This document shows positions 20,697 to 29,507 of a stretch of 64,000 nucleotides of DNA, piece by piece. A program made the position numbers and the translations under genes. Every line of letters begins with the position of its first letter. Within the stretch, counting starts at the first letter, position 1. Location of the stretch: positions 20,591 to 84,590 of the forward strand of contig JAZKZR010000007.1 of the NCBI GenBank assembly GCA_045612805.1, given 5' to 3'. This DNA comes from Candidatus Enterousia sp. (lineage in GTDB: Bacteria; Pseudomonadota; Alphaproteobacteria; Rs-D84). The notes under the pieces were generated by a model. The model saw only the letters and a list, made by a program, of their open reading frames with translations, did not search any database and was not told where the DNA came from.

Positions 20697-20722
20697 CCAC
20701 ACGAAGCATTGGCAAAGTGTGG
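20697..20722. repeat. Palindromic repeat copy B
   Basis: CCACAC-GAAGCATTGGCAAA-GTGTGG; shares AGCATTGG with copy A; overlaps the att core by 3 nt. Confidence 0.65.
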
Positions 20723-20735
20723 TGGGTGGTATTGG
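20720..20735. repeat. att core, distal copy (duplicate of the tRNA-Val(GAC) 3' end)
   Basis: TGGTGGGTGGTATTGG is identical to 29431-29446; weaker similarity continues (CGACCTT at 20745). Confidence 0.85.
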
Positions 20736-20846
20736 GCTTTCCCCCGACCTTGTGGAATCCGCCAAAAACCACCGCTTTTTGTTTTCCCTGGTACCATTTT
20801 CGTGATTTTTGCACCACTAAATGTACCCTAAAGCTTTCAGTGGCAC

Positions 20847-20875
20847 AGTATATCTTGAAAAAACGCCAATGTCAA
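20847..20875 (-). promoter_or_regulatory. Outward-facing sigma70-type promoter at the island left end
   Basis: Minus strand TTGACA (20875-20870), 17 nt, TATACT (20852-20847), pointing across the att site to metG. Confidence 0.7.
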
Positions 20876-21711
20876 TAGATGTGCGAAGTTTTTTGTTAGT
20901 TAGTTACTACCGCCCACGCCTTTATAGCATTTCATGCGTGTTTTTTCTGAGCTTTTTCACTATGTATTTCAGACAAGGTATATTTTTGGTGCGATAATAG
21001 TTCTAATGTGTGAATCAAGCAGAAATCTGGTGAAAATTTGGTGTTTTATAGCACTATGCCGCACATCAATATCTGTTTAGATCCATAAAAAAAGCAAAAT
21101 AAGTGACTAATAAGAAAAACTACGAAGACAAATAAATAGTAAAAAAGAAATAAAAAATAAGAATTGAAAGAAACAAATACAAACGCATAAATAGAATTTA
21201 GATTATAAGAAAGTAAACGGATTATTTGGAAAGATAGAATATCAGACATTAGTGAAAAAAGACTGATTTTCTACCTAAAACATTCACAAGATTTGTATAT
21301 GAGTTTCACTAATGTAACCTCGGCAAAGTTTTGTGAATGGCTTGCCGGGGTTTCTTCTATTTAGAACAGAAATCCCGCAGGTGACTACTTTTTTGAACAA
21401 CACTGAAATCCAGAGCCACGTTAGCTTAGGTGCTTTTTATACCATCCACGTGTCTCGGAAATTTAATCAGTACAAAAGATAGGAAAAAACAATGTAATTT
21501 CAAGTAAAAAATCTACCTGGATGTTTTGCGGCAATGCCAGGTATACAAAAGACCGATAAAGCCGTCACCCAACAATCAAAATGGGAACCATTGCGGCTAT
21601 GTGATCGGCAGAAATCCGAGAAAAAACACTGGGGAATCTCTGATCGTTCTCCAGTAAAACTTTTGTCGTAATCTTCCCCTAATAGATAACTTATACAATA
21701 GGAATATCACA

Positions 21712-22545
21712 ATGAATATAGAAAGAAAAGAAGAGATGTTGATAAAGGACTTAGAGACTATTCAACAAAACATATTTGATAAAATCCCCCGCAGTACACC
21801 CTTTTACCATATAATTATAAATTTGCCTTATGAGTTCAAAACGTATGACATAGGAATCTTTGCGGATAGAATTGGGTCTTTATTGATTCTGTTCGAAAAA
21901 CACCTATTGAATCATAAAAGACAATTTTATAAATATCTTTACGATTTTGACGCATTCTGTGAAGACAAGAAAGAAACAGAACCTTGGCATTTTCATATAT
22001 TGGGAACGTTTTTAGATCAATCTGGCGTGCAGGTACCATTCGATGTTTTAGAAGATTGTATGCAAAGGGCTTGTGCTGGATTCAAAAAGAAACACAAATT
22101 GTATGGGAATGTGGATTGTATGATACAGCTTATTCCTTATAACGATATTTGGAACCCTATATACTATTGCACCAAAGAATTGATTGACGGGCTTATTAGG
22201 GTTCCTATTGTTGAAGATTTGTTAGAAGACCCACTTGAAGAATCTGTTGACGATATTCCTAAGCGACCATATATATTGAAAATCAAGTTCGACAATGAGC
22301 CGGTTCACGAAATACCAACTTGGACGGATCTGGTTGATAGAAAAAAGCTGGTATTGCACACAGATAGAATATACACTTCGCAAACCTTATTTTATCCTCC
22401 AAAACCACGTAAAAATAGAAAACGGAACAAAAATCAAAGAAAAACACGTGCCGCAAGAACCTATGAAGATTTGGCAGGTGTTCTACGGACAAAATATAGT
22501 GTAGAAATCGCTAAAAATGCCCGTAGAACGCAAATAAAGTTATGA
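21712..22545 (+). CDS. HUH-superfamily endonuclease (rolling-circle Rep or relaxase-like)
   Basis: Motif I-like HIIINLP, HUH motif WHFHILG, motif III IYYCTKE (YxxK) in the right order; AGGA RBS; basic C-terminal tail. Confidence 0.65.
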   Translation: MNIERKEEMLIKDLETIQQNIFDKIPRSTPFYHIIINLPYEFKTYDIGIFADRIGSLLILFEKHLLNHKRQFYKYLYDFDAFCEDKKETEPWHFHILGTFLDQSGVQVPFDVLEDCMQRACAGFKKKHKLYGNVDCMIQLIPYNDIWNPIYYCTKELIDGLIRVPIVEDLLEDPLEESVDDIPKRPYILKIKFDNEPVHEIPTWTDLVDRKKLVLHTDRIYTSQTLFYPPKPRKNRKRNKNQRKTRAARTYEDLAGVLRTKYSVEIAKNARRTQIKL

Positions 22546-22734
22546 AAAGGATCTTATGCCGTTAGGGGAAAATTTTATAGTCTCGTAGGCATTTCCCCTA
22601 ACAGTAATCGAACCGTCAGAATTATAAAAAGCTACTCTTGCGTTCCGCACTGTATATAAATGATTTCCAGACAACGAGAAAATGGCTATATCTTTGTTAC
22701 CATTTACCCATTCGTATTTTACACCTATGCTCAT
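22540..22734 (-). CDS. Small hypothetical beta-rich protein (64 aa)
   Basis: ATG 13 nt after the resolvase stop, AGAG RBS-like sequence, normal composition. Confidence 0.5.
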   Translation of the reverse strand: MSIGVKYEWVNGNKDIAIFSLSGNHLYTVRNARVAFYNSDGSITVRGNAYETIKFSPNGIRSFS

Positions 22735-22747
22735 TTTTTTTGCTCTT

Positions 22748-27283: not shown

Positions 27284-27401
27284 GGTATATAACCTCTGTG
27301 TCAGGATTAGTATCATATAAATCAAGCTTTTTTGCAATATGTTTTTGCAAAAAAAAACAGTTCTAATAATGAACTAACAATAAATAAGTAAAGGGTTTCA
27401 C

Positions 27402-27584
27402 ATGCAAACAAAAAGTAATCTGAGCTATAGAAGAAAAGATAACAATATTGTAGTAACAACAGATACTGGCAAAAGTCAAATCTTTCCAAATGCGAAAGGA
27501 GCGTATCATGCCGGCGATGAAGTGGTCGTTCATACCGCACTTGGCACTGTGCGGGTTGATAAATTCGGAAACAGAAAATACTAA
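27402..27584 (+). CDS. Small hypothetical protein (60 aa)
   Basis: AAAGGG RBS; fills the gap between the autotransporter and integrase genes. Confidence 0.5.
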   Translation: MQTKSNLSYRRKDNNIVVTTDTGKSQIFPNAKGAYHAGDEVVVHTALGTVRVDKFGNRKY

Positions 27585-27620
27585 GATTCCCAAATTTATC
27601 ATGTCGCAACCTTAGTGTAA

Positions 27621-29297
27621 TCAATCAATTTTTATGTGCGGTTTATATTTTCCTCGTTTATTATCGATGTGTTCTGGATTGATATAAAGATCTGGAATCA
27701 CCTTCTTCCAATAATTCAAATGAAGGATTTCTTCCGGGTATACAATTTTATCAACCTGGGCTTTTATCTCTTCTGTGTTGTATTTGAGATAGTGTTTGTC
27801 TCGCATGCTTTTTCCTTCCCAACCAATAATATCATCAATGAGAGAGTCGTCTATGTTTAGTTGTTTTTTTGTGCGTTTACTCACAGTGTCACGAAAAGAA
27901 TGATATGTGTACATGCAACCATCTTTTGTTACAATTCCTAATTTTTTACGTATAAACCGCAACCACGGAGCCATAAATTTTTTAGCAGGATCGCCCTTCA
28001 ATCCTGCCGCACGCTCAAAGATAAAATCTGTATCAGTTGCACCAATTTTTTTCTGACGTGCTTTGATCATGTCTACAAATCCAAAATCTAATAATTGTTG
28101 TGCTATTGGTAGTTTACGTTCACTTGCTTTGCTTTTTCTGTTTTTCTTATCATGATTCTCACGAAACCATATACATTGAATTTTGTCTTGTTCAACAATA
28201 TCGCCAAACTGTAATGTTATTCCAAAATTTGTTCTACTACCAGAAAACAAAGCCAGCAAACAGGCTAAAAATTGATCAGGATTCTTTTTGAAAAAATCGT
28301 GTTTCGGATCAAATATTTGTGCCAGTTGTGTATCATCAAAAACACCGTATACGTTCTTTTCGCCAGCAGGTGTTTCTGGTAACCTTTCGGTATAATAAAG
28401 TAAAGCATCTTCCATATAAAAATCGGGTTCTTTTTTATGAGCCTGTTTTATCACTTTGCGTAATACATCCATGGTTTTGTTTTTTGAATCGTTATTCAGA
28501 TCTGTTCTGCTTTTTAGCTCTTCAACGATTTTTGCTACAACTTTTCTATCGTTCATTTTTGAATAGTCATCATCCAAAGATAAATTTACCGGTTTCAATA
28601 AATTTGTTAGTGTTTTTGGAAAACGTTGTTGTGTGGTCTTACTATTGCGTGCTAATGATTCTGTCAAAATTTCTCGTATAGTATTCTTCGGCACTTGGGT
28701 AAAGTACTGCGGCACATAGTGATTGTTGATTGTCGACCCTACATTACTGTTTACCATTTGATCCCATGTTATTTGTCTTGGGATAAATAGTGTTTCGCAA
28801 TCGGCAAATCTTTTTTTGATGTCAGGATTTTTCTTTGCCCTAATATGATGGATTAGTATATAAAGTTTATTACGTTCTAGTTCCGCAGCTTTGCGTGCGG
28901 CATAACGTTCTGTCACTGCGGCATAACTGTCCGTTTTGCTTAGTATCATAATCTCTTCGCATTTGAAGTACCTATCGATGACTTCAATGTCTGATAAATT
29001 CTTGTATTCGTCTTCTATAATATTTGCACGATCTTCATCTGTTTGTGCAAGTTGTTTCAAATACAGATCTGTACTAATTGGATTTGTGATATCTAATTCA
29101 ACGCCATTGATACGCATATCATATTCCTTTTTCGCTAATGCCAACCTTTGAATAGCCAGGCTCAAATCACTTGTTCCCAAGCTCTTTTTTATAGAACCGA
29201 TCTTACCATCACTTTTCAAAAAAGAAATGCGAAAGTAATAAATTTTATTCCGCAAAACCAGATTTTTTATATTTACACGTCTCACTTTCGGTACCAC
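27621..29297 (-). CDS. Tyrosine recombinase/integrase with DUF6538-like N-terminal domain
   Basis: N-terminus LVLRNKIYYFR...KKSLGTSDL; catalytic set SGSR (R), KSKAS (K), YHSFR (HxxR), IIGW (H/W), KHY (Y); adjacent to the tRNA att site; GTG start. Confidence 0.92.
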   Translation of the reverse strand: MVPKVRRVNIKNLVLRNKIYYFRISFLKSDGKIGSIKKSLGTSDLSLAIQRLALAKKEYDMRINGVELDITNPISTDLYLKQLAQTDEDRANIIEDEYKNLSDIEVIDRYFKCEEIMILSKTDSYAAVTERYAARKAAELERNKLYILIHHIRAKKNPDIKKRFADCETLFIPRQITWDQMVNSNVGSTINNHYVPQYFTQVPKNTIREILTESLARNSKTTQQRFPKTLTNLLKPVNLSLDDDYSKMNDRKVVAKIVEELKSRTDLNNDSKNKTMDVLRKVIKQAHKKEPDFYMEDALLYYTERLPETPAGEKNVYGVFDDTQLAQIFDPKHDFFKKNPDQFLACLLALFSGSRTNFGITLQFGDIVEQDKIQCIWFRENHDKKNRKSKASERKLPIAQQLLDFGFVDMIKARQKKIGATDTDFIFERAAGLKGDPAKKFMAPWLRFIRKKLGIVTKDGCMYTYHSFRDTVSKRTKKQLNIDDSLIDDIIGWEGKSMRDKHYLKYNTEEIKAQVDKIVYPEEILHLNYWKKVIPDLYINPEHIDNKRGKYKPHIKID

Positions 29298-29401
29298 CTG
29301 ACTATTGTAGAGTTATTCTTTGGTTACGAAAACTCCAAGGTGGCGGAAATCCGGAAAAATCCAAATTTCGTAGTTCTGTACCATAATGAAACTATAAAAA
29401 C

Positions 29402-29430
29402 AAAAATCCCGGCTAACCGGGAAAAATTCA
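29402..29430 (-). terminator. Terminator downstream of tRNA-Val(GAC), inside the island end
   Basis: Minus strand CCCGG-ttag-CCGGG followed by ATTTTTG. Confidence 0.7.
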
Positions 29431-29507
29431 TGGTGGGTGGTATTGGACTCGAACCAACGACCTTTACGATGTCAACGTAACGCTCTAACCAACTGAGCTA
29501 ACCACCC
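29431..29507 (-). tRNA. tRNA-Val(GAC)
   Basis: GGGTGGT acceptor stem, anticodon arm TTACG-TTGACAT-CGTAA, T loop GTTCGAG, encoded ACCA. Confidence 0.97.

Follow-up and report, generated by a model that had tools for sequence, protein, structure and literature searches.

Introduction

Several kinds of integrative element have been described that can be compared with the subject of this report, an 8,711 bp island at the tRNA-Val(GAC) gene of a 64,000 nucleotide stretch of Candidatus Enterousia sp. DNA (GenBank assembly GCA_045612805.1, contig JAZKZR010000007.1, forward-strand positions 20,591 to 84,590; the whole stretch is called the window here, and positions are counted from its first letter). 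Actinomycete elements of the pSAM2/SLP1 type combine a tyrosine integrase acting at the 3' end of a tRNA gene with a rolling-circle Rep protein, and they excise and replicate as a circle before transfer; the actinomycete integrative and conjugative elements (AICEs) also encode an FtsK-like Tra protein, which transfers double-stranded DNA, and an identifiable Xis. The Bacteroides elements NBU1 and NBU2 are about 10 kb in size, integrate at tRNA 3' ends through an identical 14 bp core and require a helper conjugative element. The genomic island SGI1 is roughly 43 kb. Integrative mobilizable elements (IMEs) with relaxases of the rolling-circle replication (RCR) initiator type are numerous and are common in streptococci, with for example Rep_trans, Rep_2 or PHA00330 proteins as relaxases (PMC5704250). 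NBU1 and NBU2 have a relaxase of the MobP type (PMC5704250); they are described as elements that do not replicate. SGI1 and the Vibrio mobilizable genomic islands have their own integrase, no mating-pore apparatus and excision only in the presence of a helper; SGI1 encodes a putative Rep_3 replication initiator, and the Vibrio island MGIVchMoz6 carries a type II restriction-modification (R-M) system (PMC5704250).

By architecture, the island appears closest to the IMEs with RCR-initiator-type relaxases. Like the streptococcal examples it is small, with a tyrosine integrase at the 3' end of a conserved gene, a Rep-type HUH protein and no mating-pore genes, and its family has variable passenger genes, R-M included; its own integration module comes with att sites, as seen from the integrase, a 16 bp repeat and variable occupancy of the site. 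It differs from them in that its HUH protein lies outside the Rep_trans, Rep_2 and PHA00330 families, in its uncultured, reduced-genome alphaproteobacterial host, and in having a resolvase slot and two conserved mini-proteins. NBU1 and NBU2 are similar in size and likewise integrate at a tRNA 3' end via a short identical core (16 bp in the island), but the island has an HUH Rep-type protein and a resolvase where they have MobP. With the pSAM2/SLP1 type it shares an integrase at a tRNA 3' end and a Rep-type protein; unlike the AICEs, it has neither an FtsK-like Tra nor a recognisable Xis. SGI1 and the Vibrio islands are also integrase-borne and also do without a mating-pore apparatus of their own, but they are much larger, have a theta-type Rep_3, reside in protein genes (trmE, yicC) and are unrelated in sequence. 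The differences from the known kinds are thus an orphan HUH family, an integrase missed by Pfam, an interchangeable resolvase slot, a covarying fold and the host lineage.

Candidatus Enterousia (order Rs-D84) has genomes mostly below 1 Mb and is without a tricarboxylic acid cycle, respiratory chains or the standard transporters for uptake (PMC12306168). At that size, an 8.7 kb element amounts to about 1% of the genome. The evidence given below leaves us in hardly any doubt that the 8,711 bp segment is an integrative mobile element with swappable cargo. Judged by sequence comparison, it belongs to a previously undescribed island family in which a fixed backbone with the integrase and a putative nicking enzyme carries one variable cargo slot.

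Results

Boundaries and attachment sites

The tRNA-Val(GAC) gene was located on the minus strand at 29431-29507 by ARAGORN and Rfam; an Rfam search of 19000-31000 at E<=1 gave nothing but this tRNA. The last 16 nt of the gene, TGGTGGGTGGTATTGG on the plus strand, are present as exact copies at 20720-20735 and 29431-29446. No further match occurs in the 64 kb window when up to two mismatches are allowed (shuffle expectation 0.04). An earlier reading made from the sequence alone (the sequence-only reading) had named this repeat and a circle of 8711 bp, and we measured the same value as the spacing between repeat starts. GC content within the island is 0.33-0.37, the minimum of the window, compared with 0.41-0.52 outside it; averaged over the 8,711 bp it is about 36%, with 41-50% in the remainder of the window. 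The island is bordered by the housekeeping genes MetG (18948-20606) and MreB (30011-31174). The features of the two ends are as follows.

20720..20735, unstranded: attL core of 16 bp, repeating the tRNA 3' end exactly and in direct orientation.
20736..20900, minus strand: attL arm with conserved GGTAC-type repeats and an outward promoter, from sequence comparison.
29407..29422, minus strand: island-borne terminator hairpin (TCCCGGTTAGCCGGGA, then a T run), directly 3' of the rebuilt tRNA, its position kept in relatives.
29431..29507, minus strand: tRNA-Val(GAC) with the attR core at 29431-29446 (ARAGORN, Rfam), identical to the tRNA at the empty site of a related locus, L021.

On the island side of attL the core runs into a degenerate tRNA-like extension that has cgacctt in common with the T-arm, and the present 3' end of tRNA-Val(GAC) comes from the island side of the crossover. 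In the related locus L004 the tRNA-proximal core (positions 25-40) has one mismatch (CCAATATCACC) and the distal core is canonical. This fits an element-supplied new tRNA 3' end with the crossover 3' of that base, the source being a single Logan contig in which a sequencing error is possible.

The outward promoter (TTGACA-17-TATACT, 20875->20847, minus strand) lies within the last 160 bp of the island, points across attL to MetG and is kept in five relatives. It might restore MetG expression once an insertion parts MetG from the tRNA. At 20599-20623 (minus strand), a terminator-like hairpin, GACGCCCCGTTTGGCGTC followed by a T run, stands about 30 bp before the likely true start of MetG; that start is probably ATGGGCAAAAAATAT near 20540, the listed TTG start at 20606 being over-extended.

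Occupancy of the tRNA-Val(GAC) site in related genomes

MetG loci were scanned in species-representative genomes, these being rumen and gut metagenome-assembled genomes labelled Candidatus Enterousia or Alphaproteobacteria. An integrase near MetG was found in none of the 80 loci, and in about 30 of the closest ones a single core lies just upstream of MetG. At L021 (JAFOVN010000031.1) the order is MreB, tRNA-Val, MetG, with a single core, no island and a tRNA identical to that of the window. Identity of L021 to the window is 97.4% as far as the tRNA; it is 96.5% in the sequence that starts some 35 bp past the distal repeat, the short spacer that follows the core being different. At L022 the flank past the single core begins with cactt, like that of the window, and similarity to the window returns further on; this flank is identical to the distal flank of the island-bearing locus L001. 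A third state is found at L103, where a different island, with a type II R-M system, occupies the same tRNA-Val(GAC) site. Towards MreB the flank of L103 is 96% identical to that of the window and towards MetG about 90%, and the MreB protein of L103 is 99.7% identical.

These single-core sites and the alternative island show that the tRNA-Val(GAC) site is polymorphic within the species and may be empty, hold the window island or hold another island. The empty sites of the same species join exactly at the repeat, in agreement with the proposal of an integrase-borne insertion at the 3' end of tRNA-Val, and a locus fixed across relatives is not what was found. Two further observations concern the empty sites. 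Variable GC-rich palindromic units lie in the spacer between tRNA-Val and MetG (L021 3263-3430, L036, L043), and at several of these sites the first bases after the tRNA, cgaattttt, resemble the first bases of the island, tgaattttt.

Exchange between diverged hosts

We compared the window with L101, a 293 kb JGI contig. Chromosomal identity is 84-92% in the flank towards MreB and 65-82% in the flank towards MetG. The stretch containing the tRNA and the integrase (29512-28013) matches at 99.6-100%, and a portion of the cargo gene (25027-24528) matches at 99.4%. Modules within an island also differ in their identity to relatives. In L005 and L018 the resolvase-HUH modules match at 98% and the integrase modules at 82%; for the window and L004 the values are 96% (resolvase module), 85% (integrase module) and 79% (HUH module). 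The window and L004 cease to be homologous at most some 20-40 bp from either end of the cargo gene, the backbone match being back at 23464, and no repeats marking a cassette site were found at the cargo edges. Because near-identical segments stand in diverged chromosomes and identity is mosaic, segments of the island have evidently crossed between diverged hosts and recombined with one another, and the island has moved between lineages recently.

A family of islands with one cargo slot

Relatives were gathered as integrase homologues of 67-100% identity on contigs from cattle, yak, pig and other gut metagenomes. Besides that of the window, seven distinct related islands occupy tRNA-Val(GAC) (L001, L004, L005/L103, L018, L020, L102 and the L107-type). 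The six that could be measured have the same 16 bp repeat at both ends and are 6,854-10,351 bp long; in nearly all family members the core repeats are exact at both ends. The backbone order is the integrase, a 60 aa open reading frame (ORF) or a 199 aa resolvase, the cargo, a resolvase of 185-190 aa, an ORF of 61-64 aa, the HUH gene in the opposite orientation, some 1 kb of non-coding DNA and the repeat. The cargo of each type is listed here.

Window, L001, L101: autotransporter.
L004, L102: DUF805 protein and three unknowns.
L005, L103: type II methyltransferase and restriction enzyme.
L018, L107-109: type IIG/ISP enzyme of 1,630-1,642 aa.
L104, L106: type IIG/ISP enzyme of 1,629 aa.
L020: unknown proteins.

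The survey of tRNA-Val(GAC) loci that the sequence-only reading had proposed thus found the same backbone with different cargo in the same site. That reading had also called the island a swappable adhesin cassette; the cargo does differ between islands, but the adhesin part proved too narrow, because about half of the relatives carry R-M systems. The genes it had listed all exist and are full length relative to their homologues.

Integrases 67-70% identical to that of the window were found at other tRNAs, each with its own terminal repeats: tRNA-Lys(CTT), tRNA-Val(TAC) and tRNA-His(GTG), the tRNA-His repeat being 19 bp. The tRNA-Lys(CTT) relatives (L012 9133-11619, L013-L017) carry a Slam-family (SlipAM) outer-membrane protein beside a 380 aa unknown protein, cargo that looks like a surface-lipoprotein export pair. 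In the tRNA-His(GTG) relative there are two copies of the distal repeat plus a terminator about 180 bp apart (L104 9048 and ~9225; also L105 and L106), possibly left behind by a previous insertion or by a tandem one.

The HUH protein and the adjacent conserved fold

The HUH gene is kept in every family member, whatever the cargo or the tRNA target. It and the conserved non-coding DNA beside it are located as follows.

21712..22545, plus strand: orphan HUH endonuclease of 277 aa with Rep-type motif order (invariant residues, model, weak matches).
21583..21614, unstranded: non-coding block (plus strand GGGAACCATTGCGGCTATGTGATCGGCAGAAA) that precedes the start codon of the HUH gene by about 100 bp, kept in every aligned element and also in L104; candidate for an operator or a nick region.
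21240..21356, minus strand: three-helix fold (covariation, DNA folding, slid controls).
21341-21352 paired with 21316-21327: hairpin c of the fold, 12 bp.
21331-21339, complementary to 21281-21289: loop pairing of 9 nt made by the loop of hairpin c.
21304-21315 paired with 21246-21257: helix b of the fold, 12 bp, enclosing the loop-pairing segment.

The motifs of the HUH protein stand in the order E84, H93-F-H95 and then Y152-C-T-K155, with hydrophobic residues after H95 and an Arg/Lys-rich C-terminal tail. E84, H93, H95, Y152 and K155 are invariant over 12 family members, down to 23% identity, which bears out the description of the gene as HUH Rep-like. A full HMMER search of 1.84 billion representative proteins returned just 12 clusters. 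The best named matches within the family, all of them weak, are rolling-circle initiators. The distant member P0060 scored 27.3 bits against PF23343 (REP_ORF2-G2P), for which the cut-off is 27.8, and matched Phage_GPA at 5.5e-3; one family member matched phrog_3419 (rolling circle DNA replication initiation) at 0.039. In the AlphaFold2 (AF2) model the core has a predicted local distance difference test score (pLDDT) of 70-88 and the order beta-alpha-beta-beta-alpha-beta-alpha, with HUH on a strand and the Tyr on the helix that follows. The named Foldseek matches were mostly Rep proteins of adeno-associated virus (AAV), porcine circovirus 2 (PCV2), microviruses and circular Rep-encoding single-stranded (CRESS) DNA viruses, together with IS200-type TnpA. 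On these grounds the protein is probably the nicking enzyme of a new family, and we somewhat favour the view that it is active in replication or transfer.

The fold is found upstream of the HUH gene in every member examined whose locus includes that region. In eight distinct sequences 96.9% of the cells are paired, compared with 32-42% in slid controls, and 13 of the 33 pairs change on both sides, a count reached by 0 of 500 shuffles. DNA folding of the block recovered two of the helices (z = -4.4 for one strand and -4.0 for the other). The tRNA-His relative keeps all three helices in a largely different sequence. The fold is a candidate origin for the HUH protein, whether a double-strand origin (dso), a single-strand origin (sso) or an origin of transfer (oriT), or else a candidate structured RNA; that this region is the origin of the HUH protein seems to us a possibility with somewhat less than an even chance.

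Integrase and small conserved proteins

Three conserved genes were assigned to the integrase and the mini-proteins.

27621..29297, minus strand: divergent tyrosine integrase of 558 aa (catalytic residues, homologues with PF00589, profile comparison with PDB).
27402..27584, plus strand: basic, beta-rich small protein of 60 aa beside the integrase, 34-93% identical in relatives at three different tRNA targets.
22540..22734, minus strand: small protein of 64 aa downstream of the resolvase, 59-97% identical in relatives.

The integrase has all six candidate catalytic residues, R355, K388, H466, R469, W493 and Y503. Three of them (R355, K388 and R469) are invariant in 18 homologues, down to 19% identity, and the full set is invariant in the 10 closest. 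The window integrase gave no match to PF00589 even at E<=10; this domain is present in homologues of 30-42% identity, and when the family profile was compared with PDB, all six matches were tyrosine recombinases, at weak E values of 0.02-0.2. The sequence-only reading had called the protein a DUF6538-type integrase with a full catalytic set. The catalytic residues were as claimed, but the N-terminus scored 19.2 bits against DUF6538 (PF20172; E 9.7e-4), below the Pfam gathering score of 27, and only the most distant homologues (P0043-P0045) carry that domain; the N-terminus is DUF6538-like and not a scored member. For the locus scan we used the closer integrase alignment, the wide one being too diverse.

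Both tiny ORFs that had been noted are real and are conserved as proteins across divergent elements. The 60 aa protein had no family match and is a candidate directionality or accessory factor. It has weak similarity to the 64 aa protein (hhalign probability 50%), and the two may be distant paralogues. A 100 aa ORF at 27322-27624 (minus strand) lacks homologues and was judged spurious, given its overlap with the conserved 60 aa ORF, which is read from the opposite strand.

The resolvase slot

The slot next to the cargo is occupied by a serine recombinase in the window and by a different recombinase in some relatives.

22748..23305, minus strand: small serine recombinase of resolvase/invertase type, 185 aa (PF00239 at E 9.4e-33, residues 3-136; phrog_125 at 6e-52).
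23306..23464, minus strand: cargo terminator, resolvase promoter and motif cluster, forming the right-hand edge of the cargo slot; candidate res/operator region.
L104 11028-11627 and L019 3730-4314: small tyrosine recombinases in the resolvase slot.

The YARVSS catalytic motif lies at residues 5-10 of the serine enzyme. The resolvase promoter (TTGACT-16-TATAAT, 23375->23348) is overlapped by TGTMYAAA-type motifs, 3 of the 12 window copies lying within 50 bp over the promoter, with no definable subsite architecture. Of the earlier claim of a serine resolvase with a res-like site, the resolvase was therefore confirmed through PF00239, and the site amounts to a cluster of repeated motifs over the promoter that is putatively res. 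In the tRNA-His and tRNA-Val(TAC) relatives a PF00589 tyrosine recombinase of 194-199 aa stands in place of the serine resolvase, which looks like a non-orthologous replacement. In L005, L018 and the L107-type relatives two resolvase genes flank the cargo.

The autotransporter cargo

The cargo of the window island consists of a single large gene.

23486..27283, minus strand: type Va autotransporter of 1265 aa (AF2 barrel, Foldseek, homologue with PF03797).

The length of 1265 aa is counted from the ATG that precedes the signal peptide. The protein begins with MRKILFVAVSVLG and ends in ...SYRF, and comprises the signal peptide, Cys-rich repeats, passenger repeats of about 40 residues of the GDxYG type, a helical linker and a 12-strand beta-barrel with a C-terminal Phe. 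AF2 modelled the last 450 residues with a pLDDT of 85.6, as strands of a passenger beta-helix, helices at 112-187 and then 12 strands. The top Foldseek matches were AaaA, EstA, NalP, BrkA and EspP (1e-12 to 1e-6), so that the barrel model and these matches both uphold the assignment as an autotransporter. The Pfam scan found no PF03797 in the window protein; the homologue P0071, 44% identical over 98% of the query, has this domain at 1.5e-14. We regard an adhesin role for this cargo as inferred.

The passenger segment at 25462-26196 is 54-66% identical to that of L001, and the neighbouring segment at 24462-25211 is 99-100% identical. This pattern suggests that the surface protein is mosaic or hypervariable in its passenger. 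The Cys-rich repeats of the passenger (residues ~160-340) are 28-47% identical to proteins of distant gut Alphaproteobacteria (L090, L094, L095, L099), and the repeat module appears to be widespread beyond the island family.

Discussion

These data can be brought together in a cycle for the element. Comparison shows that the tyrosine integrase brought about recombination between tRNA-Val(GAC) and a copy of the tRNA 3' end carried by the element, leaving the 16 bp repeat and an intact tRNA; by the same kind of comparison, the integrases of close relatives act likewise on tRNA-Val(TAC), tRNA-Lys(CTT) and tRNA-His(GTG). Excision would give a circle, which the HUH protein would nick at or near the folded non-coding region, and the nick may set off replication of the rolling-circle type, transfer of a single strand, or both. 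Multimers would be resolved by the serine recombinase at the repeated motifs that lie over its promoter; a tyrosine recombinase filling the same slot fits such a plasmid-style function. As anticipated by the sequence-only reading, Pfam, NCBIfam and PHROGs detected no phage structural or conjugation gene in the island, and ORFs or domains of a type IV secretion system (T4SS), a coupling protein or an FtsK/Tra-like protein were likewise absent from it. Because the element has no transfer or packaging genes, outside help would be needed, for example from a T4SS with a VirD4-type coupling protein. The VirD4-type host gene that had been suggested is present in the window, near its edge, in the form of a VirD4/TraG-type coupling protein at 61676-63922 (minus strand; T4SS-DNA_transf at 7e-46, TraG-D_C, TrwB_AAD_bind). 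Taken as a whole, a site-specific integrative element with HUH-driven nicking, a resolvase and helper-dependent transfer is the reading that we consider moderately probable. Mobilisation by a T4SS in particular is doubtful. We would put forward only tentatively, as rather unlikely, the broader proposal that the family is a minimal integrated rolling-circle replicon with a new HUH initiator/relaxase family, that its origin lies at the kissing-loop fold at 21240-21356, and that it is the main vehicle of surface-protein and R-M exchange in Rs-D84, possibly by way of a chromosomal VirD4-type system.

A number of results weigh against this cycle. An exact attP junction pattern (GGRRNNAGN, the core and TGAATTTTTYCC) had no match in JGI metagenome contigs or IMG/VR, a weak negative since only three integrated copies are present in JGI. 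None of the element-sized Logan/ENA contigs had overlapping ends; two of them, L002 and L004, run into tRNA and host flank and so are integrated forms. Neither the backbone DNA nor the HUH protein matched PLSDB plasmids or INPHARED phages, so no free replicon relative is known, the integrase having a single remote match there, on a Xanthomonas plasmid. No excisionase was recognised, both small ORFs and the other small ORFs being without a Pfam match. The HUH protein of the window gave no curated family match at any threshold in Pfam, NCBIfam and PHROGs scans, its AF2 model is poor overall (pLDDT 51), and its Foldseek matches are weak (E 1e-3 to 1e-4) with other ferredoxin-like folds mixed in. 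For the fold, only eight sequences were available and the structure was derived from the same ones as the pair counts; paired protein-binding half-sites could mimic the compensatory pattern. The tRNA-Lys relatives have no resolvase at all, which implies that the function is dispensable, and the genes just downstream of the coupling-protein gene (59815-61669) are housekeeping or unknown (LpoB, a TPR-like protein), with no link to a relaxosome seen; further genes of a secretion system, if there are any, would have to lie beyond the window.

Several of these results would be expected if the island had only its integrase to move it, the HUH protein being a regulator, a defunct enzyme or something else, with spread by transformation, vesicles or other vectors and exchange of cargo by homologous recombination. 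The lack of a curated Rep or relaxase match, the low-confidence model and the failure to detect a circle are all in keeping with that account, and the mosaic blocks of identity fit homologous exchange. It leaves unexplained why the HUH and YxxK residues should be invariant family-wide, down to 23% identity, why the gene should accompany any cargo or tRNA target, and why a covarying folded element always lies beside it; we consider it unlikely. An old, immobile insertion that is inherited vertically, its site being a recombination hot spot, would also account for the missing excised form and excisionase. Such a fossil is very improbable in view of the intact, full-length backbone ORFs, the repeats that are exact at both ends in nearly all members, the empty and alternative occupancy in genomes of the same species, and a tRNA-plus-integrase stretch 99.6-100% identical between hosts whose flanks are 65-92% identical.

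Small size, tRNA integration and an integrase with a replication-type protein are also properties of phage-inducible islands, and R-M cargo is common on satellites, so a phage satellite or prophage remnant packaged by a helper phage has to be considered. The PHROGs match was to the recombinase alone, with no capsid, terminase, primase or repressor; the family and its junction are absent from IMG/VR, and the HUH protein is absent from INPHARED. This origin is extremely improbable. A further question is whether the serine recombinase might be an invertase or cassette shuffler, causing phase variation or excision of the cargo, in place of a multimer resolvase. Its best profile matches are indeed named DNA invertase (phrog_125, and weakly the Mpi family), two resolvase genes surround the cargo in L005, L018 and the L107-type, and cargo boundaries fall at the edge of the resolvase upstream region. 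We rejected an invertible or excisable cargo cassette, however, as neither the window nor the two-resolvase relatives have inverted or direct repeats around the cargo or its promoter. In addition, the two resolvases have upstream sequences that are unrelated to each other, and a tyrosine recombinase can take the place of the serine enzyme. A role as invertase is accordingly quite improbable.

The island family supplies three items that can be tested directly, namely an unclassified HUH family, a compact covarying fold, and a serine or tyrosine recombinase in the same slot of one backbone. The integrase and its att pair, with a 16 bp core in a conserved tRNA, could be developed into a genetic tool for this lineage, which so far lacks one. 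For the biology of these organisms, the finding would mean that reduced gut symbionts still have an active, site-specific route by which surface proteins and phage-defence systems are swapped at tRNA genes.

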